Assembly (NCBI GenBank): GCA_030596125.1
Contig: JAUVKT010000005.1
Span: 1-57,773 of the forward strand
DNA from: Bacteroidales bacterium
Lineage (GTDB): Bacteria > Bacteroidota > Bacteroidia > Bacteroidales > VadinHA17
Length of the DNA stretch: 57,773 nt
Direction of reading: 5' to 3'
Positions 10,030 to 57,209 of this stretch are shown here, in pieces. Made by a program: the position numbers and the translations under genes. Each line of letters starts with the position of its first letter. The stretch's first letter is position 1. A model generated the notes under the pieces. The model was given only the letters and a program-made list of their open reading frames with translations. It had not been told where the DNA came from and searched no databases.

Positions 10030-10246
10030 CAGATGTCAAATGTCAAATGTCAGATGTCAGATGTCAAATGTCAAATGTTAGATGTCAAATGTCAAATGTC
10101 AAATGTCAGATGTCAAATGTCAAATGTCAAATGTTAGATGTCAAATGTCAAATGTCAAATGTCAGATGTCAGATGTCAAATGTCAGATGTCAAATGTCAA
10201 ATGTCAAATGAAGATTGAGGATTGCCGACTGAAGACTGCCGACTGC
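10030..10246 (+). repeat. Heptamer tandem array: 25 x YARATGT, then 5 phase-locked TGNNGAY units
   Basis: CAAATGT/CAGATGT/TAGATGT units run uninterrupted over 10030-10204. They are followed by TGAAGAT, TGAGGAT, TGCCGAC, TGAAGAC and TGCCGAC from 10209 in the same 7-nt register. Confidence 0.95.
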
Positions 10247-10249
10247 TTT

Positions 10250-10291
10250 GCCCTTCCGAAGCTTGAAACGAAGTGGAGAGCGAAGGAGGGC
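10250..10291 (+). repeat. Dispersed 42-bp REP-like core, copy 1
   Basis: GCCCTTCCGAAGCTTGAAACGAAGTGGAGAGCGAAGGAGGGC, flanked by GACTGC on both sides. Confidence 0.95.
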
Positions 10292-10300
10292 CGACTGCTA

Positions 10301-10828
10301 TTAGTGCGGACTATCTGAAATAAGCTGAAAAAGCAATTCGTCCTTAAACGAGTTATCAGATCGTATCCACTCTTTTTTTACACCAGTCTGTTTAAACCCC
10401 AGCCTGGTAAACAATTTGATACTGTCACTATTATCACTTAAAATGTTACAGTATATCTGGTGTAACTTAAGTCTGTTGAAGCAATAATCAATCATAAACT
10501 CAACAGCCATAGAAGCGTAACCCTTCTTTCTTGAACCGGGTTCTGCAATTAAAATACCTATACCTGCGCGCAGGTTTAAAGGGTCGAAATCGAACAGATC
10601 TACAGTGCCTATTGTAATGCCGGATGAAATTCCCCCAATCATTAATCTGAGTTGTCCCGATTCAAATATGCTCTGTTTTGAATTTTCAATATATTTTCTG
10701 AGAGCAAATTTTGAAAATGGGGTAAGAGTATTGCTTAGTTGCCAGATGGATGTATCATTTTCCCATTTGTATAATAGCTCAAGATCTTCAGGCTCAGGGG
10801 CACGTAATATCAGGTCTTTATAGCGCAT
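10301..10828 (-). CDS. GNAT family N-acetyltransferase (RimJ/SpeG-like)
   Basis: LRA.EPEDLE.LYKWEN, IGTVDLFDFDP...RAGIGILI, RKKGYA acetyl-CoA loop and N..SIKLF..LGF motifs. Confidence 0.9.
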   Translation of the reverse strand: MRYKDLILRAPEPEDLELLYKWENDTSIWQLSNTLTPFSKFALRKYIENSKQSIFESGQLRLMIGGISSGITIGTVDLFDFDPLNLRAGIGILIAEPGSRKKGYASMAVEFMIDYCFNRLKLHQIYCNILSDNSDSIKLFTRLGFKQTGVKKEWIRSDNSFKDELLFQLISDSPH

Positions 10829-10841
10829 CAGTTTACCAGTT

Positions 10842-13349
10842 TTATTCGATCAGGCTAAATTCCTTAATAAATGCTCGTTTATATCCCAGGGCGTGGATCT
10901 TTTTTAATGCTTCTTTGGCTCTGGTGTAATCGTAGAATTCTCCGGTAATATATCTGTAAAGTCCATCACTTCCTTTTATCATTCTAACATCATTCAATCC
11001 TGGAAATCCGCTGGTTACCACTTTCCTCAATGCATGGATCTGGATAGTATAAGACAGGGGTTTCATTTTGATATCAGGCCCACCTTCCTGGCCTGGAATT
11101 TCATATTCCGATATAACATACGAATCTGTTACTCCATATTTTTTAATATCGGCCATATAGTAAAGAGCATCATTTTTTGTAAAGAACTCACCCATCAGAT
11201 ATATATATCCTTTTTCCGACTTAAACTCTTTTATCAGAACAAACTCAGCCCTGCCATATCTTGTAAAATATCCTGGTATGAGTTGTCTTTCCGATTCATT
11301 AATAACAACAAAATAAGCAGGTTTGATGTGGTTCTTAAGATGTGGAGGAATAGATGTATGTGATTCAATTGTAATATTGATATCGTTACATATAATGCCC
11401 AGGCTAACCCTCCTGTTATATTTTCTTCCAACAGGGTTGTCGCTGCCATCACGATTTATATTCTCTGCAACAAAATCTGATTCACCATATCCATACGAAG
11501 TCATATTTTCCGGATTGACCCCTTTAGATAGAAGATAATCATAAACAACTCTGGCGCGTCTCTCCGAAAGAATCAGATTATACTTTTCGGTACCCTTGCT
11601 ATCGGTATAGCCATTTATTTTAATATTGAATTCGTTGTTATCGAGAAGCACCAGGATAATTTTCTCAAGTTCAGAAATAGCTTTTTCAGTTAAATGAAAA
11701 CTGTTGTAATTGAATAATACTGATTTTATCCTGAGAAATTCACCACTAAAAACCAAGTCTGGGATAAGAATTGAACTAAGGTTTATTTTTTCTCCTACAA
11801 ATGAGTCAGAGATATTAACAGGAAGAATATCAGTAACGTAACCGGGATATTTAACTTCAATTCTGTAGTCTCCGGCACTCAAATCTGTTTTATATGACCC
11901 ATTTGAAAATGGTTTCAGCAGAGACAATACAGAGTCTTCAGCAATTTTTAACAGCGAAATATTTAATAATGAAGGGTCGGTTTCCAGGCCGTCATCCAGA
12001 AATATTATTCCCTCAACGGAAATTGTTGATTGATGAGGGATTTCATCCAGAGATGCTACCACAACAGTTCTGCCTTCAGAAGATTCGGTGACAGGTATAT
12101 TTAAAAGCCCTGTACTCTGATCAACAGGGATATAATGAAGATCGTCAGAGGTTGTGTTAACAGGGTAGGGCAGATGAACGGGTTTTGACCACGCCCTGGC
12201 AAAAGATGAATAAAACACATCATAACCTCCATACCCTTTATGTCCGGTAGAACTATAATATATTCTTTTTGATTTATTATCATAAAATGGGGTATTCTCA
12301 TCAAAACGGGAATTGATTGCCGGGCCTGCATTTTTTGCTTCGCTGAAGGCGCCGTTACTTCTCCTTTCGGAAATATAGATATCCAGTCCGCCATACCCTT
12401 TGGGCCGGTTGCTGGGAAAGCAAAGAACAGATCCGTCATCTGAAATAGACGCATGGGACTCCCAGTATTTTGAGTTAATCTCTTTTCCAAATTTATTGAT
12501 CTTACTCCAATGGTTGTTTGTGTATGCCGACAAATATATGTCACCTCTTATACCATCATCTCTTGAGATAATAAGAGTGTTACCATCACCGGTAATAGAA
12601 TTTGAGTACATATCCCTTTGTTTACCGAGATCATCTGTAATATCAACGGGTCTTATCCATTCTCCTTTACGAAATTGTGACTGAAAGATCTTGTTACCTT
12701 CATTATGTTCAACTGTGAATATGAATACTGAATCGTTGGATGAGATTACAGGGTTAACAATATCAACGTAATCACTAAGCCATGGAATAAAGTGTTCAGG
12801 TTCTATGGCTCCTGCCGCGGAGACAATCTCACGTGCTCTCTCACAACTGCTGATTTGCAGGTTAATATATTCAATAAGGGAAGGATCGGCAGACCCGATC
12901 AGGGATTTATATAATCTGTAATTAGTTATAGCATCATCAAGTTTCATGTTTACCTGGCAGGCATAAGCCAGGTAGTAAATTGCATCAGTCGGGCTTGCAT
13001 TACTTTCCCGGTGGTATTCAATATCATCAACGTAATTGTCTGATGCATATTTCAATAGTGACAGCGCATTCCGTTTTCTGCCGTACATATTCAAATAGCA
13101 TACCCCTAATTTATAATTTAGATTATGATTCTCAGGAGTTATTTTATAAAGCTTTTCATAAATGACTGCGGCTTTTTTATATGCTTCATCATACATATAA
13201 TAACCGTCAGCATCCGAAAGCAGATGTTTGAACTCCCTGTCATCAATTTTCTCCTCCTGTCCCATGACAGGTCGAAATATAGACGGAAGAAGAAACAGGA
13301 TAATTATTATGCGTAAAAGAGTACTTTTGATATAGATTTTACAAATCAT
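10842..13349 (-). CDS. TPR + PD40 propeller + carboxypeptidase-regulatory-like + OmpA + two SPOR-like domains (PorE-like architecture, no lipobox)
   Basis: Signal peptide ending GQ; INSKYWESHASIS and SNRPKGYGGLDIY PD40 repeats; OmpA motifs VLFNYNS, GYTDSKG..YN..LS.RRA and NRRV; C-terminal YTIQIHAL...YRYITG.F.....A......GY..AFI. Confidence 0.85.
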   Translation of the reverse strand: MICKIYIKSTLLRIIIILFLLPSIFRPVMGQEEKIDDREFKHLLSDADGYYMYDEAYKKAAVIYEKLYKITPENHNLNYKLGVCYLNMYGRKRNALSLLKYASDNYVDDIEYHRESNASPTDAIYYLAYACQVNMKLDDAITNYRLYKSLIGSADPSLIEYINLQISSCERAREIVSAAGAIEPEHFIPWLSDYVDIVNPVISSNDSVFIFTVEHNEGNKIFQSQFRKGEWIRPVDITDDLGKQRDMYSNSITGDGNTLIISRDDGIRGDIYLSAYTNNHWSKINKFGKEINSKYWESHASISDDGSVLCFPSNRPKGYGGLDIYISERRSNGAFSEAKNAGPAINSRFDENTPFYDNKSKRIYYSSTGHKGYGGYDVFYSSFARAWSKPVHLPYPVNTTSDDLHYIPVDQSTGLLNIPVTESSEGRTVVVASLDEIPHQSTISVEGIIFLDDGLETDPSLLNISLLKIAEDSVLSLLKPFSNGSYKTDLSAGDYRIEVKYPGYVTDILPVNISDSFVGEKINLSSILIPDLVFSGEFLRIKSVLFNYNSFHLTEKAISELEKIILVLLDNNEFNIKINGYTDSKGTEKYNLILSERRARVVYDYLLSKGVNPENMTSYGYGESDFVAENINRDGSDNPVGRKYNRRVSLGIICNDINITIESHTSIPPHLKNHIKPAYFVVINESERQLIPGYFTRYGRAEFVLIKEFKSEKGYIYLMGEFFTKNDALYYMADIKKYGVTDSYVISEYEIPGQEGGPDIKMKPLSYTIQIHALRKVVTSGFPGLNDVRMIKGSDGLYRYITGEFYDYTRAKEALKKIHALGYKRAFIKEFSLIE

Positions 13350-15274
13350 TCCTTTCTTCCCCTGAAGACCATTTTAATAAATATCTCTTCCGGATAGCCA
13401 ATGCTTATCAGTTTATCTTTTCTCCTGTAGGCTTCATCTTTAGTTTCAAACTTTCCGGTTGTATATCTGTAGAACCTGTCATCGTCATTATAAACAACTG
13501 TAACTTTAGTATTTTTGAAGAAGGTTACGTCGACAGGGTTATGCAGTGCCATCAGTTGAACAGTATAATAGAGAATATCAATATTTGCAGAGTCTGAGTC
13601 ACTTATGTTTCCAACTATAACATCTGTAACCAGAATTGAAGAGTCAATTGCTTCTATAACCTGAACCTGTGAGAAGTCAAGTTTCTCAACAATTTCAGGT
13701 ACAGGAAAATAATTTTCGTCCGGCTCAAGTATTACATTAATAATTTCTGCATCTGTGGGATGGTCTTCGTACAGTGCTACCTCTTTTGTTGAAGGGAGAT
13801 AACCTAAACCTGTGTAGGTAATAGTGTATTCATCACCTTTGATCAGAAAACTATAGAATCCTGTTGACTGGTTCGGGTAGCTGATATCCAGTGTGTCTTC
13901 ACGGGTTTTGCTATACAATATAACCTTAAAATCATCATTAAACCCGATTACAGTATCGCTGAGGGACATAATTCCCTTTATTTCAAACATTCGTTCTACG
14001 GCTTCCTTGTCACCGGGAGTAATATAATGGATATGCCTCTCTTTATAACCTGTCACAAGGGAATAATATGCATTCCTGCCATTATTAAAAGGCTGGTAGA
14101 AGAGATCATTGTCGGCAGTATTAAGCGGGTACCCAATGTTCCCCGGGCTCTTCCATATTCCACCTAATAGTTTTGATTCAAAAATATCGTATCCACCAAT
14201 ACTGGAGTGGCCTTCGGAGCTGAAATAGAGAATTGAGTCATTGGTTGTAATAAATGGAGTATCTTCATTGTATGGAGTATTAATAGCTGATCCGAGGTTT
14301 TCGGGTATACCCCATTCCCCATCTTCATCTTTTGCCGAGACATAGATATCGAGAGCTCCTTCTCCTCCATCACGATTACTTGTAAAATATAGTTTTGTAC
14401 CATCCCCGGAGACCGATGCATGAGATTCGTAGAACTTTGTGTTGATATTACGTCCCAGTTTCTTGATCTTCGACCATGATCCGTTTTCGTATATGGAGGT
14501 ATAAATATTACCAATGTAATTATCGTTTTTGTACAGGAACAGTTCTGTGCCATCAAAGTTAAGTGAGCTGCTTGTACAATCCCTGGCATCTCCAAGCTGG
14601 GCTGTAATATCAATTGGTTCATTCCAGCTTCCTCTCTCTCTCCTTACATAGAATATTGTGTTTTCCAGCCCACGTTGCTCAGTAAAAATAAGTGTATTTC
14701 CATCTCCGCTAACAACCGGGTGAGAATTTATTGACCCCAGGTTAATAAGCGGGCCGAGATTTTCTTTTTTAAACTCAATTGGGTTTTCCACCGCTTTTAT
14801 TGCATTTCTGCATGCATTAATCTGCTGGTTAATGTAGTCTGAATTTTCAAGTTTCCCTTTCTCAGACATAAGTTCATTTAATCTGGCGTAGGATCTAAGT
14901 GCTTTGTCAAATTCATTATTTATCTGGTAGGCAGTTGCCAGAGAGAAGAACACATCAAGTGGTGCTCTTTTTTCCTTGAATGATTCTTCTTTTGCTTCGT
15001 AACTTGAATTTTTTACGGCCTCTTCAAGAAAAGGAATAGCTTTTGTTTTTTCATCATCTATATTGAGATAACAGTTTCCGATCTTATATTTAATATTGGC
15101 ATTGTCAGGGATGAAGTCATTTAACATGAGGTAGAGAGGATTGGCAAGTTCATATTCCTCGAAGAGGTAATGAGATTCAGCTTTGGTAAATATTTCCCTA
15201 AGTTCATCACTTGTCTGACCAGATATCTGAGCAGAGATTATTACTGTTATGAATATGAACAAATATTTTAGCAT
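13346..15274 (-). CDS. TPR + PD40 propeller + CRD-like + C-terminal SPOR-like domain protein
   Basis: The real start is ATG 15274 (MLKYLFIFITVIISAQISGQ signal peptide). INTKFYESHA and SNRDGGEGALDIY repeats; C-terminal YTVQLMAL...YRYTTGKF.TK.EA......GY..IF. Confidence 0.8.
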   Translation of the reverse strand: MLKYLFIFITVIISAQISGQTSDELREIFTKAESHYLFEEYELANPLYLMLNDFIPDNANIKYKIGNCYLNIDDEKTKAIPFLEEAVKNSSYEAKEESFKEKRAPLDVFFSLATAYQINNEFDKALRSYARLNELMSEKGKLENSDYINQQINACRNAIKAVENPIEFKKENLGPLINLGSINSHPVVSGDGNTLIFTEQRGLENTIFYVRRERGSWNEPIDITAQLGDARDCTSSSLNFDGTELFLYKNDNYIGNIYTSIYENGSWSKIKKLGRNINTKFYESHASVSGDGTKLYFTSNRDGGEGALDIYVSAKDEDGEWGIPENLGSAINTPYNEDTPFITTNDSILYFSSEGHSSIGGYDIFESKLLGGIWKSPGNIGYPLNTADNDLFYQPFNNGRNAYYSLVTGYKERHIHYITPGDKEAVERMFEIKGIMSLSDTVIGFNDDFKVILYSKTREDTLDISYPNQSTGFYSFLIKGDEYTITYTGLGYLPSTKEVALYEDHPTDAEIINVILEPDENYFPVPEIVEKLDFSQVQVIEAIDSSILVTDVIVGNISDSDSANIDILYYTVQLMALHNPVDVTFFKNTKVTVVYNDDDRFYRYTTGKFETKDEAYRRKDKLISIGYPEEIFIKMVFRGRKE

Positions 15275-15281
15275 AAAATCT

Positions 15282-16559
15282 TTACTTAAAGGTAATAAAA
15301 TATATATCCTCCCTTCCAAAACCGGAACCTTCCCTGTAAACCGGAATATAACCACTTCTGCCATCTTTTGATGGCATAAAATAGATGTTGTCGTCAGGCG
15401 TATTGACCGGGTACCCCAGGTTGGCCGGTTTAGACCATTGACCATTTTGCAGTTTCTCTGACTTAAAAAGATCAAACCCCCCCATATTGTGATGCCCCTG
15501 AGAAGCAAAAAACAGTCTGTTCCCGTTGTCAATAAGGAATGCTCTGTCTTCATTGAAAGGTGTATTTATCTCAGGGCCCATATTTACAGGGTCTCCCCAG
15601 GTACCGTCATTCTTTTTTACGGAGATATAAAGGTCGAGTCCCCCATAACCGCCTGGACGATTCGAAGCAAGGACCATAGTGCTCCCGTTATCTGTTACAA
15701 AAGCATGAGTTTCCCAGTGCTTTGTGTTTATTGTTTTTCCAAGTTTTTCAGCAACAGACCATTTAGCCCCATCAAATTTACTGATATAAATATCACTGTT
15801 ATTATTATCATCTTTCGCCAGGTAGAGGGAATTTCCATCATTAGCCAGGCAGGATATATAGAGGTCCCCATCACTCTGGATGTCAGGTGTAATATTTACG
15901 GGAGGGCTCCATCCGTTTTTTATTTTCTTTGTAAAGAATACTGCATCGTAAAATTTGAGTGACGACATATAGGCAAAACTCTGTTCGTCAGATGAGATCA
16001 CGGGGTTAAAGTTTGAACATGAGTCGTTAAAAGGTTCACCCATATTTTCTTCGGAGAACTCAATCGGGTTTTCGATCAATATTTTGGCATTGTTACAAAC
16101 GTCAATCTGGTGCTGAACAAACAAAATATTCTCAGTATCATCAGGAAGCAGGGTTTTACTGTATTTGATAAATGCTTCCCTTGCCTGATCGAACTTAAAA
16201 TGGATTCTGTAAGCATTAGCAAGATGGAACCATGCTTCATAAGGTGCAGTTTTCTGTTTCAGTGAACCCTCCATGAATATGGCAGCTGAATTCTTTGCTG
16301 CTGACTCAAGGTAGTTAACAGCCATATTTTTCTTTCCGATAATATTCAGGTAACAGAGACCTATTCTGTAGGCCAGGTTATAATTATCGGGGTATTCCTC
16401 AAATAGCTGAAGATAAGATGGCAGGGCATCTGAAAAATCTTCAAACATCAGGAAATATTCAGCATCAAGAAAAGCTTCCTGGTTTTTCCTGTAATTTTGT
16501 GCAGATAAGTTACCGGCAGTTAAGGCTGCCAATAGCAGAAATATCAGTGCTCGGGTCAT
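15282..16559 (-). CDS. TPR + PD40 propeller protein (no C-terminal anchor)
   Basis: Signal peptide ending SAQ; TPR YRIGLCYLN; INTKHWETHA, SNRPGGYGGLDLY and GHHNMGGFD; ends right after the last GFGREDIY repeat. Confidence 0.85.
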   Translation of the reverse strand: MTRALIFLLLAALTAGNLSAQNYRKNQEAFLDAEYFLMFEDFSDALPSYLQLFEEYPDNYNLAYRIGLCYLNIIGKKNMAVNYLESAAKNSAAIFMEGSLKQKTAPYEAWFHLANAYRIHFKFDQAREAFIKYSKTLLPDDTENILFVQHQIDVCNNAKILIENPIEFSEENMGEPFNDSCSNFNPVISSDEQSFAYMSSLKFYDAVFFTKKIKNGWSPPVNITPDIQSDGDLYISCLANDGNSLYLAKDDNNNSDIYISKFDGAKWSVAEKLGKTINTKHWETHAFVTDNGSTMVLASNRPGGYGGLDLYISVKKNDGTWGDPVNMGPEINTPFNEDRAFLIDNGNRLFFASQGHHNMGGFDLFKSEKLQNGQWSKPANLGYPVNTPDDNIYFMPSKDGRSGYIPVYREGSGFGREDIYFITFK

Positions 16560-16595
16560 AATTCTTTATCTGTTTTTTAGTGTTTAAAAATTATT

Positions 16596-19112
16596 TCATT
16601 GACTTTTATTCTCTTTTTTCTTTTTTCTTGACCAAAGAATGATGAGTATGGTTGCTCCTCCACCGAGTAGCAGCCAGATAATCCATAATTTACCTCTCTC
16701 TTGGGTTTTAATATAATCAACAATCTCTTCAGCTGATTTCTTGTCATGTGATATAAGTTTGGCAAAAGCCTCGAATACTTTCTGCCGGGGATATCCTTGT
16801 TTTACGCTGTTACTAAGGAGGTAATTAATAATATCTTCAGGATTTTTTGCATTTATTTTTTCATAATCAATAGATTCTATGGCTCTGAGAAGATTATCCT
16901 CTGTATATTCAGAAAGTCTTGAAAGGTATTCAGCAGGAGATTCATTTTTATTAGCAGACATTGCAGCAATAAGCCTTGTGAGAATCTCTTTTTCTGCTCC
17001 GTCATCAAGCGCTACTGAATATAACGATTCGAGCCATTCACCGGCATTCTTAATATTTTTCTCTTTTGTTTTTTCTATTGCTTCCCTGATTTTTTCATGC
17101 TCCTTTGTCTCGTCGGTAACCTCTGAAATAATCTGGTCCATCTGATCAATAGTAGGATCCTTGACCTCAACCAATTGCTCCTGGGCTGCCAACTCCAAAG
17201 AATCCTGTAACCGGGCTTCTGCAAGCAGGATGGCAGGATCAATTACGTCAACCGGCTTAACAACCGGCTTAACATCAGTAACAAAAAATTCACGTGTTGT
17301 GATATTGTTAAACCGGTCTTTGATTGTAAATACGATCTTATTGTCGCCGGTAACAGGTAACATATTGTAATCGAATTGACTATCGTTTACTATAAATTCT
17401 TCGGTAAGGATCAGGGAGTCACCCTGCCAGTGTTCTACGATCAGTATTGAATGAGGTTCAATCGCCAGGGGTATTATGGCTGTGTCGCCAGCATTATAAA
17501 CAGGCAGTGAGTCAATTGCAATAATATTGAATTCTGCAAACATGTCTGTTTTTAACAGCTCTTCGTCTTGTAATTCAATATTGTCTCCTTCCCTGGTAAG
17601 GCTTAAATCCAGATCTGCTACCCTTTTTTCTGATCCCTCAGATTCGTACACAATCTGGAATTTTCCATGGGGTATTTCAAATTCATATTCTCCTGTTTCA
17701 GGATCCGAATAAACAATTAATAAAGTATCCAGGTTTTCCTTGTTCAGGGCACTTACCTTTACGCTGTCGGAGAACTGTTCTAACAGGTCCCTTAGCCTGA
17801 CCATTCCTCTTACAAAGAATTTTCTTGGATGATCATCTGAGAATACTTCTATCCTGTGTATATCCTGTTTGCCGTAACCTTCGGGATCAAACCTTGATAC
17901 ATATGCGATGTGTCCAACACCAACGGGGGAGTAGAAAATATCATCGTCAGTACTGTTTACCGGGTAACCCATATTTAAAGGCGCTGACCATTCACCATCA
18001 TCAAGAAGTGTTGAATAAAAGATATCATGTCCTCCCATATTAAAATGGCCTCTTGAACTGAAGTACAATACCTTATTTGTTTGGTCAAGGAAGGGAGTCT
18101 CTTCGTTGAAGGGTGTATTTAGAGTTGGACCAAGATTAACTGCAGGTCCCCATGAACCGAGACTGTCGCGTTGTGATACATAAATATCCAGTCCGCCATA
18201 ACCTCCGGGACGGTTACTGGTGAAAAATAGTTTCTGTCCGTCACTGGAGGGACTGGCGTGTGATTCCCAGTATTTTGTATTAATATTTTCGTTTAATTTT
18301 TCTGCTGGCATCCATCGTCCGTCTATATACCGGCTTGAGTAAATATTTCCAACATATTGGTCATTTTTGTAAAGGAAAAGTTCATTTCCATCACCCGTCA
18401 GGGCTGTTGAGTATCCCTCGTCCACCAACAGTTGGTCCATGATGACGATACCTGGAGTCCATTCTCCATTCACCTTTCTGGAGAAGAGGATCATATCCTG
18501 TAACTGTGCCTCACGGGTATAAACTAAAGTGGTTTCATCAGCAGATACAACTGGATTAACTTCTGAAAATCTTTCGTTTACTATCTCTCCCTGGTTTACT
18601 GATTTGAGGTAAAGAGGCACTTTCATAAGTTGTATTGCATTGTAACAAGCCTTGATCTGGTTTTCAACAATTACAGGATTATACTTCTTTTGATCCATTT
18701 CTTCAAAAAACATGTTAAATGTTGCAATAGCCTTATCGATCTGGTTTGTTACGAGGTAGGCATTCCCAAGGTAGTAAAGAGCATCATATGGAGCAGCCGT
18801 CTCTTTAAACCGTCCTTCCCGGTATTTTGGATTTATGTTTTGAACTGCAGCTTGCAGGTATCCCAGAGACTTCTCTTTTTCACCTGACATGTTAAGGTAA
18901 CACATACCAAGTCTGTATTTATAATTATCGTTGTCAGGGAAGAGGTTTAATAATGATTCGTAAAAGGGGATTGCTTCATTATACTCTTCAAAAAGGATAA
19001 AAGCTTCCGCTTCGTAAAACATCACCTTGATCTCTTTTTTAGTCTGGCCACTAATAGGAGAAATATAGAGTATAAAGACAATTGAAATCAGGATTATTGC
19101 CGGTCTGTACAT
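16596..19112 (-). CDS. TPR + PD40 propeller + CRD/Ig-like + helical region + C-terminal TM anchor protein
   Basis: Signal peptide ending SGQ; INTKYWESHA and SNRPGGYGGLDIY repeats; ends LWIIWLLLGGGATILIILWSRKKKKENKSQ (TM helix plus basic tail). Confidence 0.85.
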   Translation of the reverse strand: MYRPAIILISIVFILYISPISGQTKKEIKVMFYEAEAFILFEEYNEAIPFYESLLNLFPDNDNYKYRLGMCYLNMSGEKEKSLGYLQAAVQNINPKYREGRFKETAAPYDALYYLGNAYLVTNQIDKAIATFNMFFEEMDQKKYNPVIVENQIKACYNAIQLMKVPLYLKSVNQGEIVNERFSEVNPVVSADETTLVYTREAQLQDMILFSRKVNGEWTPGIVIMDQLLVDEGYSTALTGDGNELFLYKNDQYVGNIYSSRYIDGRWMPAEKLNENINTKYWESHASPSSDGQKLFFTSNRPGGYGGLDIYVSQRDSLGSWGPAVNLGPTLNTPFNEETPFLDQTNKVLYFSSRGHFNMGGHDIFYSTLLDDGEWSAPLNMGYPVNSTDDDIFYSPVGVGHIAYVSRFDPEGYGKQDIHRIEVFSDDHPRKFFVRGMVRLRDLLEQFSDSVKVSALNKENLDTLLIVYSDPETGEYEFEIPHGKFQIVYESEGSEKRVADLDLSLTREGDNIELQDEELLKTDMFAEFNIIAIDSLPVYNAGDTAIIPLAIEPHSILIVEHWQGDSLILTEEFIVNDSQFDYNMLPVTGDNKIVFTIKDRFNNITTREFFVTDVKPVVKPVDVIDPAILLAEARLQDSLELAAQEQLVEVKDPTIDQMDQIISEVTDETKEHEKIREAIEKTKEKNIKNAGEWLESLYSVALDDGAEKEILTRLIAAMSANKNESPAEYLSRLSEYTEDNLLRAIESIDYEKINAKNPEDIINYLLSNSVKQGYPRQKVFEAFAKLISHDKKSAEEIVDYIKTQERGKLWIIWLLLGGGATILIILWSRKKKKENKSQ

Positions 19113-19133
19113 CTGTTAGAGGTTTCTTTTTTC

Positions 19134-19141
19134 CAAATCTA
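19134..19141 (-). promoter_or_regulatory. -7 box (TAGATTTG) for the PD40 operon
   Basis: Matches TAnnTTTG about 22 bp upstream of ATG 19112. Confidence 0.5.
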
Positions 19142-19188
19142 ATAATATTAAGCTAAATATTAAAAAAAAATGGTCATAATATGAGAAG

Positions 19189-19320
19189 AAGTGCCTAAAG
19201 TGCCTAAAGTGAAAAGTGACTAAAGTTTGAAGACTGAAGACTGCCTGCCCTGTGAAATACGACGGAGGAGTTATTTCTACAGGGAAGACTACCAATTGCC
19301 AACTGCCAATTGCCGACTGC
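19189..19320 (+). repeat. Mixed 9-mer (AAGTGMCTA) and 7-mer (GAAGACT/GCCAAYT/GCCGACT) array with an embedded hairpin
   Basis: AAGTGCCTA x2, AAGTGAA and AAGTGACTA, then GAAGACT units interrupted by the hairpin CCCTGTGAAATA-N12-TATTTCTACAGGG (19248-19284). Confidence 0.85.
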
Positions 19321-19323
19321 TTT

Positions 19324-19365
19324 GCCCTTCCGAAGCATGAAACGAAGTGGAGAGCGAAGAAGGGC
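19324..19365 (+). repeat. Dispersed 42-bp REP-like core, copy 2
   Basis: GCCCTTCCGAAGCATGAAACGAAGTGGAGAGCGAAGAAGGGC; two differences from copy 1. Confidence 0.95.
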
Positions 19366-19384
19366 CAACTGTTAACGGATTCGA

Positions 19385-20995
19385 TTATATTTTTTTCTCA
19401 GGGATATTTATTGTATAAATCTCGCCCATACGTGATTTTGAATTGCTTCCGATTACAAGGTCTGAGCCTGTAATGGCAATTTTTTTATCAATGGTGAAAT
19501 CAGAAAGCTTTTCCATAGCAATTATTATACGGGCTGTATTCAGGTCTGTTGAACTAAAAATTATTTCATCGGGTGTGTTTATTCTTATGATCTCTGTAAG
19601 TTGCTCAAATTCACCAAGAGCACTGTGATTATCAGAATTATTATCCACAGCTATTCTGCCGATTACATTTATCCTTGAATAGTTATTTCTGACTATTTCA
19701 AGAATCTGTTCATACTCTTCCGGACTACTTGCAATAACAATTTTTTTAACCCTTGATCTGATGCCTGACACCTTAATAATTTCGGGTTTTGACAAAATAT
19801 ATCTTATCCCGGGTATTACAACGAGGGTAAAAAGGCTTACGAACACTATTATGGTCCTGGAAAATCTGAGATCGACAGGAAGAAAGGCATATGATATCAT
19901 TATTAGTAATATCCCGGTAAGAGTGCCCAGGAACAGTGATCTCATTCTCACGGGTGTCTTATAGCCTCCCCATATGCCAATAGTTGCAATAATCAACACA
20001 GTATAGACAGGAATGATAATATTTGTAAGTACTTCAGGGTATTGATATCCGTCACCGAATTTAATATTGCCCCATAGATTCGCAAAAGAATTGAAAACCA
20101 GTAACATGATTAGTGAATCAACTACCGGGAGAGCAAGTTTACTGGTAACACGTTTTGCCATAGACAAAGAGCCCCTGATGAAAATGGCAAGGTTAATAAG
20201 CCAGATTAGAAATCTTATTCTGCGATAGCTGAAATGTTTTTTCACAAAGATTATCATTGACCTGTAGAAATTAATCACATAATTAATTTCTGATTTTCTT
20301 GTGCTTTCACCTTTGAAATGGATAATGGAGGGATGGGGGAGGTAATATATATTGAAACCGGATTCAAGAATTCTGTAACTAAGGTCGATATCTTCTCCAT
20401 ACATAAAGAATGATTCATCAAAGAGGCCTGCAGCCTCAATAGCCTCTTTCCTAATAAACATAAAGGCCCCTGTAAGCACTTCAATTTTTTGTATCTTATC
20501 ATTGTCGAGATGACCAAGATAATATCTGTTAAAGCGTTTTGAACCGGGGAAAAGTGATGAAAGCCCGGACATTTTATAAAATGCAGTGGCCGGTGTTGGC
20601 AAAGCCCTTTTCGATTCAGGGAGGTATTTTCCTTTACCGTCAATCATTTTCACCCCCACTGCACCTGCATCGGGGTGCTCTTCCATAAATTCAAAACATT
20701 TACTAAAGGTCTTTTCACTTACTACGGTGTCGGGGTTCAGGATCAGTATATATTTTCCGTTAGCTATTTTGATACCCTGGTTATTGGCAATCGAAAAACC
20801 CGGATTGTGCCTGTTTCTAATTAGCTTTACATCCCTGAATTTCTCAATTATCATCGAGTTGGATCCGTCAGCAGAGTTATTATCAACTACAATTACCTCA
20901 CTATTTATCCCTTTTATTGCCCTGAACACCGAGGTCAGACACTGCTCAAGAAAATATTTTACATTGTAGTTTACTATAATTACAGAGAGATCCAT
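19385..20995 (-). CDS. GT2 glycosyltransferase fused to a C-terminal membrane region and Rossmann-like domain
   Basis: LSVIIVNYN, VVDNNSADGS, GF..ANNQ, ILNPD and FFMYGEDIDL motifs; then about 4-5 TM helices. Confidence 0.9.
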   Translation of the reverse strand: MDLSVIIVNYNVKYFLEQCLTSVFRAIKGINSEVIVVDNNSADGSNSMIIEKFRDVKLIRNRHNPGFSIANNQGIKIANGKYILILNPDTVVSEKTFSKCFEFMEEHPDAGAVGVKMIDGKGKYLPESKRALPTPATAFYKMSGLSSLFPGSKRFNRYYLGHLDNDKIQKIEVLTGAFMFIRKEAIEAAGLFDESFFMYGEDIDLSYRILESGFNIYYLPHPSIIHFKGESTRKSEINYVINFYRSMIIFVKKHFSYRRIRFLIWLINLAIFIRGSLSMAKRVTSKLALPVVDSLIMLLVFNSFANLWGNIKFGDGYQYPEVLTNIIIPVYTVLIIATIGIWGGYKTPVRMRSLFLGTLTGILLIMISYAFLPVDLRFSRTIIVFVSLFTLVVIPGIRYILSKPEIIKVSGIRSRVKKIVIASSPEEYEQILEIVRNNYSRINVIGRIAVDNNSDNHSALGEFEQLTEIIRINTPDEIIFSSTDLNTARIIIAMEKLSDFTIDKKIAITGSDLVIGSNSKSRMGEIYTINIPEKKI

Positions 20996-21003: not shown

Positions 21004-22218
21004 TTATTGTTTATCAATACAAGTTCTTATAACTCCGGAAAGTCTTTTTACACCCTCTTTTATATCGTTCATGTCTGAGTATGAGAAGTTTATTCTTATT
21101 GTATTTTTTCCTGAATCATCACAATGGAATACCGATCCTTTTACAAAGGCAACATTGTTTTCAACAGCCTTATTAAATATCATGTCTACATCAATATCTT
21201 CAGGTATTGTAATGAATAGAAAAAGGCCTCCCTCCGGCCTGGTCCATTTTACATTTTCAGGCATATATTTTCCGAAACATTCAAGCATGTAGTCTCTTTT
21301 ATTCCTGTAAAGCTCTATTGTATTAACAAGGTTTTTATCGAGTGATCCTCTTTTGATATATTCAGCAGCAATCTTCTGTAAAAGTACTGGAGAGCAGACG
21401 TCAGCCGATTGTTTCGCCATTATGAATTTGTCTATAATTACAGGATTCCCAATAAGCCAGGCAACTCTGAATCCGGGGGCAAATATTTTAGAGAAGGTAA
21501 ACAGAGTAATAACCCTGCCTGAATTGTCAAGCTCATAGATCATTTTCTGAGGTTCTCCTTCGAACCTGATCTCTCTGTAAGGACTATCTTCCAGAATAAG
21601 CAAATTATATTTTTCAGCTATCGCTAAAATCTCACTGCGACGTGATTCAGGCATTGTTATACCGGCCGGATTTTGAAAATCGGGTATCACATATATAAAT
21701 TTAATTTTCTTACCTGAGTTAGTCAGTTCTTTTACAGCTTGTTCGAGCTTATCCATTCTCATACCCTGTTCGTCTAAGGGTATTCCTTTTAGTCTTGCTC
21801 CGTATACATTAAATGCACTTAAACCACCCAGGTAGGAGGGGAGTCCGCATATAATATAGTCGTTCGGGTCGATAAGTATTTTAGCCAGGATATCAAGAGC
21901 CTGTTGCGATCCGGTGCTTATTGCAAGATTTTCGGGCCCGATCTTTAATCCCTGTTCATTATGGCGTTGTAGCAACATTTCCCTGAGTAGAGCATCACCT
22001 TCTGTTGTCCCATATTGAAGGGCTTGTTCTCCCTCTTTATCAAGTATATAGTTGGCAATTTCTTTTACCTCCTCAACCGGGAATGTTTGAGGAGATGGTA
22101 GCCCGCCGGCAAAGGATATCATGTCAGGGTTACTTAAAAGTTTAAGAATTTCCCTGATCGCTGATCGTTTCATCGATTTTGCTGATCGTGAAAACTTATC
22201 TTCGGTATTAATTATCAT
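21004..22218 (-). CDS. PLP-dependent class I aminotransferase (LysN/2-aminoadipate transaminase-like)
   Basis: S.IREILK, ISFAGGLP, ALQYG.TEG, GSQQAL, PDFQNPAG, EDSPY and TFSKIFAPG.R (PLP lysine) motifs. Confidence 0.9.
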   Translation of the reverse strand: MIINTEDKFSRSAKSMKRSAIREILKLLSNPDMISFAGGLPSPQTFPVEEVKEIANYILDKEGEQALQYGTTEGDALLREMLLQRHNEQGLKIGPENLAISTGSQQALDILAKILIDPNDYIICGLPSYLGGLSAFNVYGARLKGIPLDEQGMRMDKLEQAVKELTNSGKKIKFIYVIPDFQNPAGITMPESRRSEILAIAEKYNLLILEDSPYREIRFEGEPQKMIYELDNSGRVITLFTFSKIFAPGFRVAWLIGNPVIIDKFIMAKQSADVCSPVLLQKIAAEYIKRGSLDKNLVNTIELYRNKRDYMLECFGKYMPENVKWTRPEGGLFLFITIPEDIDVDMIFNKAVENNVAFVKGSVFHCDDSGKNTIRINFSYSDMNDIKEGVKRLSGVIRTCIDKQ

Positions 22219-22274
22219 TTTTTTGTGTGTGAGTTAACCTGTTAAACAGGTAAAAAAATAGTTTTAGTCTGTAA

Positions 22275-22898
22275 TTATATATCGGGGGTATCGAAAAGAG
22301 TCCTGTTTAAAATTGATCTGCCGAGTGTTATTTCATCTGTATATTCCAGTTCGTCTCCGATGGCAACGCCACGCGACAATGTAGTGATCTTAATTTCAAA
22401 AGGGATAAGTTTCCGGTAAATATAGAAGTTTGTAGTATCTCCTTCCATTGTTGTGCTTAGTGCCAGAATAACTTCATTGACAGTTCCTTCTGAAACCTTT
22501 TTCTCCAGTGAGGCGATCTTCAGATCAGAAGGGCCGATCCCATCCATTGGTGAAATGATGCCTCCGAGAACATGGTAAATGCCCCTGTACTGACTGGTGT
22601 TTTCAACGGCAATAACATCCCTGATATTTTCAACAACACATACTGCTTGGTGGTCTCTGGACTTATCGCTGCATATTTCACAAACTTCTTTATCTGATAC
22701 ATTGTGGCAAATTATGCAGTAATGAATCTCTTTTTTTAACCTTATGATGCTTTCACCAAATCTTTCAACCTCTGAAGTATCTTTTCTTAACAGGTGCATA
22801 ACAAGACGAAGGGCTGTCTTTTTTCCAATGCCGGGCAGGGAAGAAAATTCATTAACTGCTTCTTCAAGGAGCCTGGAGGAAAAACCGGTTATTGACAT
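22275..22898 (-). CDS. recR: Recombination mediator RecR
   Basis: LPGIG.KTALRL HhH motif, C4 zinc finger, [21 protein letters not shown] and LEYTDE.TL. Start ATG 22898 lies downstream of a -7 box. Confidence 0.97.
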
Positions 22899-22921
22899 AT
22901 TTTTTATTATTAGTCTCAATA

Positions 22922-22929
22922 CAAATTTA
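22922..22929 (-). promoter_or_regulatory. -7 box (TAAATTTG) for recR
   Basis: Exact TAnnTTTG match about 24 bp upstream of ATG 22898. Confidence 0.6.
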
Positions 22930-22999
22930 CGGAGTTTGAATTTAAGCATTTTAATTTTTTCTCTCACCTCTTTTCATTATCCTTACCAAAATTTTTTTA

Positions 23000-24475: not shown

Positions 24476-24525
24476 TTTAAGATTGTTAATTTCTTTATCC
24501 TTCAAAAATCAACATTCGTTGATCG
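24459..24525. repeat. Imperfect long inverted repeat between convergent genes (possible bidirectional terminator)
   Basis: CGATCAACGATTTTTGATTT pairs with AAAATCAACATTCGTTGATCG; the left arm overlaps the SSS stop codon. Confidence 0.55.
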
Positions 24526-24554
24526 ATATTGGATATTCAAAACAGATCTGGTTT

Positions 24555-25220: not shown

Positions 25221-25650
25221 CCGACGGGTTAACTGAATTATTTATTATAAGAATGGTATCTATCCTGTTCTTTGTATAGCTGACATTTCCGATGGTGTAG
25301 AGAAAACTATATCCACAAGCTTTTGAAATAAAATGATGAGTTGCCGTATAAGTAATCTTAAGTGTGTCATGAATCAGCCCGTTTACAATAACATAATCTG
25401 CACAGTCGGATGCAGGGTTAAGAGGAAGCTCTATCTTCCCGGTTTTGGAGTTATCGTATATCAGAAGATCATCCATTCCAACTCCATATATGGTAAGGCT
25501 GTCGATAACAGTTGTTTCATTATTGTCAGTCTCATAAAGAGTAATAACTGCCATCGATTCTCCCGGATGGTCGCAACTCTCAGTTATGCAGCCTGAACAG
25601 ACCGCAATCAATACTATAATCAACCCTGCTGATAATCTGATACCTCTCAT
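25192..25650 (-). CDS. Lipoprotein, DUF6452-like
   Basis: Lipobox-like CSGC; DSLTIYG, I.LPLNP, DTL.ITY and FIS.ACGY...Y motifs. Confidence 0.65.
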   Translation of the reverse strand: MRGIRLSAGLIIVLIAVCSGCITESCDHPGESMAVITLYETDNNETTVIDSLTIYGVGMDDLLIYDNSKTGKIELPLNPASDCADYVIVNGLIHDTLKITYTATHHFISKACGYSFLYTIGNVSYTKNRIDTILIINNSVNPSDEENLRTFF

Positions 25651-35849: not shown

Positions 35850-35880
35850 AAAGGGCTGCCATCTGTTGGGGCCCTTTTTT
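35850..35880 (+). terminator. Intrinsic terminator of the M23...zinc-ribbon operon
   Basis: AAAGGGCT...GGCCCTTTTTT hairpin with T-tract. Confidence 0.7.
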
Positions 35881-35895
35881 ATTAGAAGGCAGTCG

Positions 35896-35937
35896 GCCCT
35901 CCTTCGCTCTCCACTTCGTTTCAAGCTTCGGAAGGGC
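35896..35937 (-). repeat. Dispersed 42-bp REP-like core, copy 3
   Basis: Exact reverse complement of copy 1. Confidence 0.95.
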
Positions 35938-35940
35938 AAA

Positions 35941-36046
35941 GCAGTCAGCAGTCTTCAATCTTAAAACTTTAGTCACTTTTAACTTTAGTCACTTTAGTTC
36001 ACTTTAGTCACTTCTTCATTTAGTCACTTCTAACTTTAGCTCACTT
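35941..36046 (-). repeat. CAGTC-type heptamers followed by an ACTTTAGTC-type 7-10-mer array
   Basis: + strand ACTTTAGTC ACTTTTA ACTTTAGTC ACTTTAGTTC ACTTTAGTC...; same unit family as 19189-19225, in the opposite orientation. Confidence 0.85.
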
Positions 36047-36062
36047 ATAACTTCTTTTCAAC

Positions 36063-36070
36063 TATATTTG
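36063..36070 (+). promoter_or_regulatory. -7 box (TATATTTG) for hutU
   Basis: Exact match about 25 bp upstream of ATG 36096. Confidence 0.6.
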
Positions 36071-55107: not shown

Positions 55108-55186
55108 TGTTTTATTTAGTATTCCTGTTCAGCTATTGTTAAATGTATTATATTGGTCTGGAAAACCTGATATTAAATTTTTTAAC

Positions 55187-57007
55187 ATGCTATCCAAACA
55201 CAACAAAACACTGTTATTGAGTCTATTCTTTATTGGAGTTACAATTTCGGGTAAAGCCGATACAGAAAAGAGAGTTGTTATTCTGCATACTAATGATATG
55301 CATTCCCGGCTGGATGGATTTGCCCCTTCAGGGGAGTATTCGCCTCTTACTGTAAATGACGATAATACGATCGGAGGTTTCAGCCGGATTGCCGCCATAT
55401 TGAATAATGAAAAAAGTAAAGACCCCTCCTCTACGCTTGTTGTTGATGCAGGTGATTTTCTGATGGGCACAATATATCACTATATGGAGGAATATAACGG
55501 TTTTCAGTTACCCCTGATGAAGGATATGGGGTATGAATTTGTTGCAATAGGAAATCATGAGTTTGATTACGGACCGGATAAATTGGCCCTTATTATTGAA
55601 AAATCTGTTTCCGGAGGCGAGATTCCGCATCTTCTGCTTACAAATGCCGTCTTCGATGATAAAAATGATGAAGACAACAGATTTGAAGCTCTGTTTGACA
55701 GAGGAATTATTACCCGTACCGGCATAATAGAGAAGTCAGGAGTAAAGATCGGTCTCTTTTCACTTATGGGTGTCGATGCTGATGATGTAGCACCATTTGC
55801 ACCTCCTGTAACATTTGCCCGGCAAAAGAGGAGTGCAAAAAAAGCTGTTAAGCAGTTAAAGAAGGAGGGATGCGATATCATTATATGTTTGTCGCACAGT
55901 GGTGTGGAAAAAAATAAGCATGGTGAATGGGATGGTGAAGATGTAAAACTGGCCAAAAAGGTAAAAGGTCTTGACCTGATAATAAGCGGACATACCCATA
56001 CTGTACTTACTGAACCGGTGTTTGTAAAAGGCACACCTATTGTGCAGACAGGCGCCAACGGTTGTAATGTCGGCAAACTCGAAATATTAGTTAATAGTGA
56101 TGGGGTAACGGTAGAAAACTACACTCTCATTCCGGTTAATGACAATGTGAAAGGTGACGAGGAGATTCAGGCAAGAATAGATGGTCAGAAGAGAAAAATA
56201 TCCTCAAGTTTGTTTGAACCCCTGGGTTATGATGTAGAATCAGATTTGATCAGATCAGGGTACGAACTTCTATGTGACGAGTATGGAGACCTGGAGAATA
56301 GTAATCTTGGTCCCCTTGTTGTAGATGCAATCCATTCCTATATTAATATAAATAGTGCTGCAGGTACTGATATCAGTATGGTTGCTGCCGGGGTTATCAG
56401 GGACAGGGTGCCAACGGGGATGCTTTCGGTGCAGGATATTTTCAGGGTTGTGTCTCTTGGCTCCGGTGAAGATAATATTCCGGGCTATCCTCTTGCAAGG
56501 GTTTATGTAACCGGGATAGAGTTGAAAAGAATAGTTGAAATATTACTTGTTGCCTACAAATCGAGTCCGTCAAACTACTGCTATTATTCAGGGCTTGAAG
56601 TAGATTATAACCCTGATAAAGGGCTATTACGCAAAGTGAAATCTATCAGTATTACGGATAGTGATGGAGTGTCAACACCTGTTGACCTTAATAAGAAAAA
56701 TGAGAAATTGTATTCTGTCAGTGCAAATGTCTATATGCTTGAGTTTATCGGGATAATTAAGAAGACCACATTCGGACTTGTTAATGTTACTCCAAAGCAT
56801 GCTAATGGTGAACCGGTAGCTGACATGAAAAAGTCTGTTATTGATTTTGACAGGGAGCAGTCTGGTGTTCAGGAAGGTAAAGAGTGGATTGCGTTTGTTG
56901 AGTATCTGAAAAAAATGACAGATGTTGATGGTGACGATGTAGCAGATATGGATAAGTTTTATCTTAATCCTCCGCTAAGGATCAAGCCTGTGGGTATTTC
57001 AGATTAG
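55187..57007 (+). CDS. Secreted bifunctional metallophosphatase/5'-nucleotidase (UshA-like)
   Basis: ILHTNDMH, VDAGDF, GNHEFDYG, LSHSG and ISGHTH motifs; 5'-nucleotidase C-domain (SNLG, GVIR). Signal peptide from ATG 55187. Confidence 0.9.
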   Translation: MLSKHNKTLLLSLFFIGVTISGKADTEKRVVILHTNDMHSRLDGFAPSGEYSPLTVNDDNTIGGFSRIAAILNNEKSKDPSSTLVVDAGDFLMGTIYHYMEEYNGFQLPLMKDMGYEFVAIGNHEFDYGPDKLALIIEKSVSGGEIPHLLLTNAVFDDKNDEDNRFEALFDRGIITRTGIIEKSGVKIGLFSLMGVDADDVAPFAPPVTFARQKRSAKKAVKQLKKEGCDIIICLSHSGVEKNKHGEWDGEDVKLAKKVKGLDLIISGHTHTVLTEPVFVKGTPIVQTGANGCNVGKLEILVNSDGVTVENYTLIPVNDNVKGDEEIQARIDGQKRKISSSLFEPLGYDVESDLIRSGYELLCDEYGDLENSNLGPLVVDAIHSYININSAAGTDISMVAAGVIRDRVPTGMLSVQDIFRVVSLGSGEDNIPGYPLARVYVTGIELKRIVEILLVAYKSSPSNYCYYSGLEVDYNPDKGLLRKVKSISITDSDGVSTPVDLNKKNEKLYSVSANVYMLEFIGIIKKTTFGLVNVTPKHANGEPVADMKKSVIDFDREQSGVQEGKEWIAFVEYLKKMTDVDGDDVADMDKFYLNPPLRIKPVGISD

Positions 57008-57013
57008 CAGTCC

Positions 57014-57055
57014 TCCCTCCTTCGCTCTCCACTTCGTTTCAAGCTTCGGAAGGGC
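57014..57055 (-). repeat. Dispersed 42-bp REP-like core, copy 4
   Basis: Reverse complement of copy 1 with one terminal mismatch; its GCAGTC flank overlaps the TAG stop at 57005-57007. Confidence 0.95.
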
Positions 57056-57059
57056 AAAG

Positions 57060-57209
57060 CAGTCGGTAGTCCACAGTCTTCAGTCGGCAATCCGCAGTCG
57101 GCAATCCGCAGTCCACAGTTCACCAATTCTTCCAGTACCTGGTACCCGGTACCCGACACCCGACACCTGACACCCGGTACCCGGCACCCGGCACCCAGTA
57201 TCCAGCACC
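57060..57209 (-). repeat. Two heptamer arrays: 8 x YARTCNN (57060-57115) and 11 x YRRYAYC (57133-57209)
   Basis: CAGTCGG TAGTCCA CAGTCTT CAGTCGG CAATCCG..., then CAGTACC TGGTACC CGGTACC CGACACC...CAGCACC. Confidence 0.9.

Follow-up and report, generated by a model that had tools for sequence, protein, structure and literature searches.

The stretch analyzed here, which we call the window, comprises 57,773 nt of contig JAUVKT010000005.1 (C98) from a Bacteroidales bacterium (assembly GCA_030596125.1), whose genome consists of 2,697,440 bases on 165 contigs with a G+C content of 39.5%. It harbors four copies of a 42-bp sequence, the core, each of which is joined to simple-repeat arrays. The core, the arrays and the mobile elements associated with them were investigated, and the arrays were compared with the repeats that flank genes of the four-helix-bundle family PF05635. 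The four cores had been noticed in a first-pass annotation of the sequence and were reproduced at positions 10250(+), 19324(+), 35896(-) and 57014(-) with 0, 2, 0 and 1 differences, respectively; no match occurred in 100 shuffles of the window. As annotated, all of them have GACTGC-like flanks, which read ...GACTGCTTT-core-(C/G)(G/A)ACTG, and on one side only they continue into a heptamer run and then into a distal array.

At locus 1, core copy 1 (10250..10291, +) is adjoined by a GACTGNN-type heptamer run (10213..10247, +) and an ATGTCAA array of period 7 with 25.4 units (10033..10210, +), whose unit is also found in the arms of a PF05635 gene on contig C81. The inserted sequence proper, described below, covers 45 nt at 10246-10290, while base 10291 belongs to the split heptamer. 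Core copy 2 with its two differences (19324..19365, +) is followed on its array side by an ACTGCCA heptamer run (19288..19320, +), by a GC-rich module termed 'hairpin3' (GCCCTGTGAAATACGACGGAGGAGTTATTTCTACAGGG; 19246..19284, +) and by a AAGTGCCTA 9-mer array with subsequent TGAAGAC heptamers (19189..19243, +). Tandem Repeats Finder resolved the latter region into the AAGTGCCTA array at 19189-19226 (period 9, 4.4 units) and the heptamer run at 19228-19243. Five copies of 'hairpin3' were found genome-wide; its left junction, CTGC(T/C)TGCCCT, is similar to that of the core. Core copy 3 (35896..35937, -), which is identical to copy 1, adjoins a heptamer run (35940..35960, -) and a AAGTGACTAAAG-type array of period 9/16 (ACTTTAGTC; 35965..36053, -); AGTGACTAGAG arms exist at PF05635 genes of same-genus genomes. 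This composite sits downstream of a GC hairpin with a T run (35853..35881, +) behind the stop codon of the gene at 35064-35828. The hairpin was judged by eye to be a terminator and was not called by a terminator consensus scan. Core copy 4 (57014..57055, -) shows one difference, a final A, because this base is part of the split heptamer GACTGAG. It adjoins a run of nine heptamers (57058..57120, -) and a GGTACCC/GGTGTCG-type array (57137..57196, -), to which the GGGTACT/GGTACCC-type arms of a PF05635 gene in G022, a genome of another genus, correspond. For this array, Tandem Repeats Finder reported the unit ACCCGGC with period 7 and 7.6 units (57144-57196). Thus, the array types and the 25 ATGTCAA units of the first-pass annotation were recovered, but not the 11 units it had assigned to locus 4.

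The genes beside the four loci are unrelated housekeeping genes (YbjQ, GNAT, TPR/PD40, GT2, a zinc-ribbon protein, urocanase and 5′-nucleotidase). In each case a core lies shortly behind a stop codon (9, 19, 67 and 6 nt at loci 1 to 4), and the arrays and the next co-directional gene follow on the opposite side. Three of the downstream genes possess an exact TAnnTTTG box, namely TAGATTTG (19134..19141, -) 29 nt before the start at 19112, TATATTTG (36063..36070, +) 33 nt before the start at 36096, and TAAATTTG (57295..57302, +) 29 nt before the start at 57324. Upstream of the fourth gene, at 9984(-), only the near-matches TATATTTA and TAAATTTA were detected. We take TAnnTTTG to be the promoter box of Bacteroidota. 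Among the genes with an upstream spacer of at least 120 nt, 255 of 772 carry it, with a peak 20-50 nt before the start, compared to 91 in the antisense control, and the TATATTTG box is also present at orthologous sites of locus 3 that are devoid of the composite. Hence, the association with the box was confirmed in the window, but TAnnTTTG is a general promoter box and not part of the element.

In genomes of the same genus, the sites orthologous to loci 1 and 3 are short, with neither arrays nor a core. For locus 1, one genome shows a spacer of approximately 110 nt without repeats. For locus 3, three genomes show the order stop codon, terminator-like hairpin, spacer of approximately 60-90 nt, TATATTTG box and gene, whereas in our sequence approximately 190 nt of core and arrays are inserted between the hairpin and the box. 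The first-pass annotation had proposed such a comparison of orthologous loci. At locus 2 the neighborhood is rearranged in the relatives, which have no arrays there. The data support the view that the array and core insertions at loci 1 and 3 arose in this lineage. The window arrays have no inverted partner, and no PF05635 match was obtained on contig C98. The sequencing runs listed for the organism included no RNA run. Four metagenome DNA runs from four cold-seep and marine-sediment studies were also inspected over positions 9900-19500; among the contigs listed, none spans the array blocks. In the best-covered run the blocks 9900-10541 and 18888-19500 reached a summed depth approximately 9-50 times the depth of the intervening unique genes.

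A search of the whole genome disclosed 39 copies of the core with at most three differences, 20 of which are identical. The element is therefore not restricted to the four copies originally described. By aligning filled and empty paralogous copies, we found that the true unit is a 45-nt insert, CTTTGCCC...GGAGGG, and that the final base of the 42-mer is a base of the flanking heptamer outside the core. The three CGAAG units described for the core are present at a spacing of 12 nt; in four copies substitutions inside these units changed CGAAG to TGAAG. The hairpin ascribed to the core was not substantiated. Measured against 200 dinucleotide shuffles, the fold z-scores of the core with its flanks were -0.59, -0.28, -0.66 and -1.10 for the four loci as RNA, and +0.43 and +0.80 as DNA. 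The core is thus no good hairpin and folds no better than shuffled sequences. At gathering thresholds Rfam gave no match on the window, and around core 3 only matches at chance level were obtained (E 2.4-7.8, 9-14 bits).

Including its own genome, the core was present in two of 41 sampled relatives, and it was not found in any of the four same-genus genomes. Outside its own genome it occurs twice in G022, on one contig of a Bacteroidota metagenome-assembled genome and on five metagenome contigs. Both copies in G022 lie on contig C307 (L001, ~6327; L003, ~11400), where the core with two heptamers per side directly follows a TAA and precedes the next open reading frame (ORF). The host genes form two paralogous pairs, approximately 85% identical and NTPase-like in appearance; the core insertion is either older than the duplication of the pair or was copied along with it. 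Taken together, the core is a young, lineage-restricted, non-coding nested repeat.

The position of the core within the heptamers turned out to be fixed. Filled and empty copies of a carrier element (see below) differ by exactly GACTG|45 nt|NN, i.e., the insert resides between bases 5 and 6 of the heptamer. A blind pattern parsed 16 cores in the same way; this 'insert in heptamer' pattern was loose, and of its 239 rows, mostly noise, we kept just those containing a core. Where the 42-mer ends in C, T or A, the insertion took place in GACTGCC, in GACTGTG, and in GACTGAG or GACTGAA, respectively, since this base is the first N of the split heptamer. Heptamer-like flanks were present at all 39 cores. 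The core was thus inserted beside a fixed short target, in a single orientation and without a target site duplication (TSD). The genome contains 61 runs of at least three GACTGNN units. Fourteen of them touch a core, all on the strand of the core, while the other 47, among them the longest ones (24, 16 and 14 units), are coreless. Therefore, the core lives in the arrays and does not seed them. Eight other sampled genomes contain the same heptamers, and the core was not found in them. On metagenome contig L048, the core is located in the other arm of the carrier, its orientation relative to GACTG being unchanged.

Except for a few short matches, each of the 39 copies has a right flank of its own, and the left flanks are shared, which places the core at the outer edge of the repeat block. 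Of the 22 copies classed by eye as lying outside the carrier, 14 have a distal non-GACTG array at most 250 nt away on the array side and five have one on the other side. The one-sided layout is hence real for this class. More complex arrangements were also observed. Contig C25 combines a core, a second GC module and about five types of array in one string. On C76, a partial 3′-end of the core, GCGAAGGAGGGCCGACTG, starts a run of 12 heptamers ending in a full core. On C125 (2415-2560), the core plus one heptamer is triplicated in tandem with a period of 52 at the end of a MITE-like (miniature inverted-repeat transposable element) sequence, 11 nt past a stop codon. Two further GC-rich modules, 'hairpin2' and the above-mentioned 'hairpin3', lie within or next to arrays; copies of the carrier differ in whether 'hairpin2' occupies a GAYTG|NN phase.

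The uniform polarity seen in the window did not extend to the genome. Genes outside the window were crude calls of ORFs of at least 110 aa, covering 90.5% of the genome. By these calls all 39 cores are extragenic, with a flanking ORF or a contig end on both sides. The side facing away from the arrays looks at a gene end in 22 copies and at a gene start in 16, and the array side at a gene start in 24 and at a gene end in 11. Between co-directional neighbors, the order stop, core, arrays, start was found in 13 copies, which correspond to 11 loci because C125 carries three tandem copies, and the reverse order in six; ten cores lie between divergent and five between convergent genes. Due to these mixed orientations the polarity is a tendency and not a rule. 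In 13 of the 22 copies facing a gene end, the core follows the stop codon very closely, at 4-28 nt. The strand of the core was associated neither with the local GC skew, used as a proxy on a draft assembly (minus-strand cores 12/10, plus-strand cores 10/5), nor genome-wide with the majority strand of the genes. Within the window, the gene strand shifts at 22000-31000 from mostly minus to mostly plus, and the core strand shifts too, from plus (10 and 19 kb) to minus (36 and 57 kb).

A simple periodicity scan of the genome yielded 153 arrays of period 7 (7.1 kb in total) and 11, 37, 15, 15, 0 and 0 arrays of periods 5, 6, 8, 9, 10 and 11, respectively. The period-7 arrays are mostly intergenic (15 of 153 lie inside ORFs), and 30 of them are situated at or near contig ends without an ORF in between. 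They are enriched between convergent genes, where 31 of 108 placed arrays reside compared to 279 of 1945 intergenic spaces. The unit AAATGTC recurs in 20 arrays and four other units in eight arrays each. Three-unit patterns of GACTGCC and ATGTCAA were detected in 10 and 5 of the 41 sampled relatives, respectively, counts that include the own genome. They belong to other genera and families and to none of the four same-genus genomes, which have AAGTGACTA-type arrays at other places. Array units regarded by the first-pass annotation as locus-specific thus recur genome-wide and in other genera.

Approximately 15 of the 39 cores ride in a repeat of ~390 bp (340-390 bp among the copies) with the ends GTAACTAATCAGT...ACTGAATAGTTAC and 8-bp TSDs, whose interior holds a four-helix-bundle gene, decayed, interrupted by stop codons and reduced to its 5′ part, between inverted heptamer arms. 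The TSDs match in 8 of 8 positions at C67 and C108 and in 7 of 8 at C18, C43 and C150; at the coreless copies on C55, C154, C68 and C7 they were recognized by eye. At least eight copies lack the core. A search with the end sequences revealed a single inverted pair 1.65 kb apart (C65:1394-3047, equal to L156 495-2148), between which lies an ORF of 482 aa whose product has DDE_Tnp_IS66 and zf-IS66 domains. This IS66-family element shares the 13-bp ends of the carrier, is flanked by an 8-bp TSD (GTTTTATT), is single in the genome and interrupts another ORF; read by eye, the translation of the upstream part of the latter resembles the end of an AAA-type ATPase. Owing to the matching 13-bp ends and the 8-bp TSD, the carrier is a MITE of an IS66-family element, for which a DDE transposase is available in trans. 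An IS66-type end (at most two edits) lies within 22 nt of 14 of the 39 cores, compared to one of 3000 random windows. The remaining 22-25 cores, including all four window copies, have no such end nearby. At the window loci no IS66-type ends or TSDs were found on the outer side of the core; matches inside the arrays on the opposite side needed three edits and are at chance level. A resemblance to an IS66 end noticed by eye at locus 1 failed the search with degenerate ends. The window loci are gene-less array composites lacking recognizable element ends.

Among the MITE copies the core is 96.6% identical on average, whereas nine other 42-column windows of the alignment reach 79-93%. In a maximum-likelihood tree of 18 MITE bodies from which the core had been removed, copies with and without the core are intermingled. 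Four changes are needed, at least two of which are forced by well-supported branches; for instance, C108 (core) is the sister of C68 (no core) with a support of 98/97. This site has therefore gained or lost the core repeatedly, through conversion among copies or through a site-specific event.

The decayed gene inside the MITE led us to the intact family. The genome encodes seven PF05635 proteins (23S_rRNA_IVP; TIGR02436 'four helix bundle protein', weakly Avd-like). Their genes are flanked by simple-repeat arrays, the upstream array being the reverse complement of the downstream one, as in the pairs ATGTCAA/TTGACAT at C81, CGGCAGT/GACTGNN at C35, GGTTTCA/AACCTG at C45 and GAGGCGGTA at C140. 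Reverse-complementary flanks were found at five of the seven genes. The cassette on C81 forms a stem of approximately 100 bp around the ORF (-175 kcal/mol, z = -7.2), and none of 20 shuffles was as good. The strict period-7 detector gave no inverted array pairs in the genome, not even at PF05635 genes.

PF05635 is present in 47 of 61 genomes of the order and in 62 of 81 of the phylum. A single gene was examined in each of 27 further genomes of the order, three loci with too short flanks having been dropped before counting. In 22 of them the flanks were reverse-complementary beyond all 30 shuffles; 17 had tandem arrays on both sides of the gene, and 26 had one on at least one side. In 29 genomes from the rest of the phylum, none of which had to be dropped, the corresponding figures were 22, 9 and 23. 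Control ORFs, all taken from the array-rich genome studied here, gave reverse complementarity in 12 of 200 cases, arrays on both flanks in 12 of 400 and arrays on at least one flank in 89 of 400. The arm units differ among the cassettes and include TAACTGA (L063) and GCAGTCR (L079, another family). In same-genus genomes and G022 we found arms composed of AGTGACTAGAG, GGCTAAG, GGGTACT/GGTACCC, GAGGCGGTA and AACGGCG. Thus, each distal array type of the window has an arm counterpart nearby in the family. The density of period-7 arrays was 0, 1 and 0 per 200 kb in three PF05635-free genomes and 2, 8, 6 and 2 in four genomes with 8-11 PF05635 genes, compared to 11.3 here. Small as it is (seven genomes, uncorrected for composition or relatedness), this sample is in line with a connection between PF05635 and arrays. 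Two loci showed peculiarities. The upstream arm of the gene at C112:97921-98226 (L015) follows, by eye, directly the 3′-end of an apparent tRNA gene. Around L063 (G053:C1, ~960 kb), a closed genome possesses seven PF05635 matches within ~25 kb (938-962 kb), of which the sampled one has the TAACTGA-containing arms.

On balance, we are inclined to believe that the core is a passenger in GACTGNN arrays, riding in part on an IS66-type MITE, and that the arrays are of the kind that builds the arms of PF05635 cassettes. In this explanation, the core occupies a fixed phase between heptamer bases 5 and 6 in a fixed orientation, usually at the outer edge of an array block. The arrays are members of a genome-wide population of period-7 simple repeats, and repeats of this kind form inverted arms, i.e., a long stem, around PF05635/TIGR02436 genes, a family also encoded in intervening sequences of 23S rRNA. 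The window composites lie between the stop codon of a gene (at locus 3, behind the presumed terminator) and the next gene's own promoter. The core may spread by two routes. By the first, which the carrier copies document, it rides on the ~390-bp MITE, which the IS66-family DDE transposase can probably move in trans. By the second, putative route, it would move between heptamer arrays, including into and out of MITE copies, through homology-driven gene conversion between near-identical flanking heptamers or through a site-specific step. We regard the core as a selfish or neutral rider on arrays, no sign of a host function having been seen.

Several points speak against this explanation. Within the species no pair of empty and filled sites was found at any non-MITE locus, public contigs break at the arrays, and identity to the relatives in the flanking genes is only ~70-76%. 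Here, site-specific insertion is expected to give the same outcome as gene conversion. The higher conservation of the core within the MITE could equally reflect selection for a function, and the gene calls outside the window are weak. Moreover, 153 arrays face seven PF05635 genes (~20:1), so that most arrays are not demonstrably relics of cassettes; they could arise independently and simply be exploited by the cassettes. In the window, the gene-less arrays may be cassette relics, products of recombination between arrays or the result of a process of their own.

The first-pass annotation had suggested a REP-like (repetitive extragenic palindromic) system with its enzyme encoded elsewhere. A similar scenario, in which a Y1 (HUH) transposase of the REP/RAYT or IS200/IS605 type acts in trans, recognizes the GC-clamped core as a single-stranded module and inserts it 3′ of GACTG without a TSD, seems unlikely to us. 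The insertion target of IS200/IS605 elements is a fixed tetra- or pentanucleotide, 3′ of which they integrate in one orientation and without a TSD, and the single heptamer phase, single orientation and missing TSD of the core resemble this behavior, as do the presence or absence of 'hairpin2' at GAYTG|NN and the core-like left junction of 'hairpin3'. Six PF01797 (Y1) matches were detected in the genome, four of them full-length (C163:40437-40775, C154:13041-13379, C107:23759-23905, C1:833-1009, C38:59156-59500 and C80:4880-5227). Three or four of these matches constitute one family with conserved flanking GC hairpins; one has an in-frame TGA and two are fragments. This looks like an IS200-like or RAYT family of its own, unrelated to the core. 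However, within 450 nt on either side, the six matches are accompanied by different hairpins of their own and by neither core nor heptamers. The core differs from IS200/IS605 elements by the lack of notable subterminal hairpins, of a linked TnpA and of a strand bias, the latter judged from the GC-skew and gene-strand comparisons, a weak test on a draft assembly. With REP elements and bacterial interspersed mosaic elements and their RAYTs it shares its small size, a G+C content above that of the genome, a high copy number, an intergenic location, frequently just past stop codons, and its non-autonomous nature; it differs in having no stable palindrome and no core-flanked Y1 and in being embedded in tandem heptamers. 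The GTAG/CGTC tag of REP/RAYT systems (PMC3733652) was not seen in the core by direct reading. The fixed phase and orientation could, furthermore, result from flanking homology alone. Of the annotation's proposal, the non-autonomous, high-copy, intergenic and array-bound nature of the core stood (39 of 39 heptamer flanks), but the hairpin did not. As to the enzyme, profile searches for Y1 and reverse transcriptase (PF00078, no match in the genome) disclosed no gene flanked by cores, GIY-YIG nucleases not having been searched for. The only enzyme link is the IS66-family DDE transposase matching the ends of the ~15 MITE copies, which pertains to the carrier and not to the window copies.

We consider it improbable that the core is a selected cis element, be it a binding site for a regulator or the four-helix-bundle protein, with its three CGAAG units, or a signal for RNA stability or processing at the ends of genes. 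Such a function would fit the elevated identity of the core among MITE copies, the regular 12-nt spacing of CGAAG and the short distances to stop codons. It is at variance with the missing core at orthologous sites and in the four same-genus genomes, with the unrelated housekeeping neighbors, with the occurrence in either orientation to neighboring genes and also in divergent promoter regions, and with the location of core 3 past the presumed terminator. The TGAAG variants and the lack of an Rfam match do not favor it either. Growth of the heptamers by slippage from the CGACTG behind the core, by which the core would seed the arrays, is highly improbable; the arrangements on C76 and C125 could be read in its favor, but it is largely refuted by the run and genome counts given above, and no core was noticed within 160 nt on either side of the L079 PF05635 gene with its GCAGTCR arms.

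Returning to the passenger explanation and the cassettes, the nearest described system is the S23p-encoding intervening sequence of 23S rRNA. That of Coxiella burnetii has a 28-bp terminal stem that is cut by RNase III, and two to three tandem GACAGAT heptamers, whose number varies among strains, precede its ORF (Warrier et al. 2016, PMC4990558). As in the intervening sequences with an S23p/PF05635 ORF of C. burnetii and Leptospira, an ORF of the same family lies here in the loop of an inverted-repeat stem. The arms of the PF05635 genes described here are tandem 6- to 9-mers, with a stem of ~100 bp at C81, and the cassette stems may likewise be excised by RNase III. Unlike the intervening sequences, our cassettes are located between protein genes and have long arrays with cassette-specific units, and the window loci are arrays without an ORF and without an inverted partner. 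A full-text search of the literature, mostly without subscription journals and supplements, disclosed no paper describing the 45-nt core and none tying PF05635 genes outside rRNA to inverted simple-repeat arms.

The carrier also resembles BrickBuilt of Porphyromonas gingivalis, an intergenic, species-restricted MITE with conserved leader and tail, a tandem array and small inverted ends (Klein et al. 2015, PMC4596501). This ~390-bp element shares its 13-bp ends and 8-bp TSD with an IS66-family transposase gene. BrickBuilt is described with one 23-nt unit, whereas many unit families of 7-9 nt, a decayed gene and a 45-nt module nested in an arm occur here. Comparable heptamer arrays are the short tandemly repeated repetitive sequences of cyanobacteria. 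Our arrays are likewise tandem repeats of period 7, intergenic and made up of few recurring units. TAACTGA heptamers have been reported from Beggiatoaceae, Cyanobacteria and five Bacteroidetes as intergenic and patchy, with 'no mechanism evident'; they are absent at orthologous sites of close relatives and break assemblies (MacGregor 2015, PMC4679880). The PF05635 arms at L063 contain this very unit. The terms 'helix bundle' and '23S' have no occurrences in the accessible text of that article, nor does it hold the link to PF05635 or the nested core.

Tentatively, and with clear reservations, we suggest a wider interpretation, in which the heptamer arrays of Bacteroidota, and of Cyanobacteria and Beggiatoaceae, might be the arms or relics of one unrecognized class of selfish stem-loop gene cassettes. 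In such a class, an Avd/S23p-like gene would lie in a long inverted-repeat stem between ordinary genes and the transcript would presumably be cut by RNase III, and the 45-nt core, possibly with other GC modules, would be a second-order parasite that inserts into the arm repeat at a single phase.

For genome plasticity the core alone is of local interest, and the repeats limit the assembly of this organism and are a cause of assembly breaks. PF05635 genes, however, are among the commonest unexplained small genes of Bacteroidota; they have been described as Avd-like (PMC10053308) and noted within cas loci (PMC3936711). If the arrays and the PF05635 genes make up one element similar to an intervening sequence, three questions would become accessible to experiment: which agent moves the cassette, what role the Avd-like protein has, and for what reason PF05635 genes occur in operons such as the cas loci.

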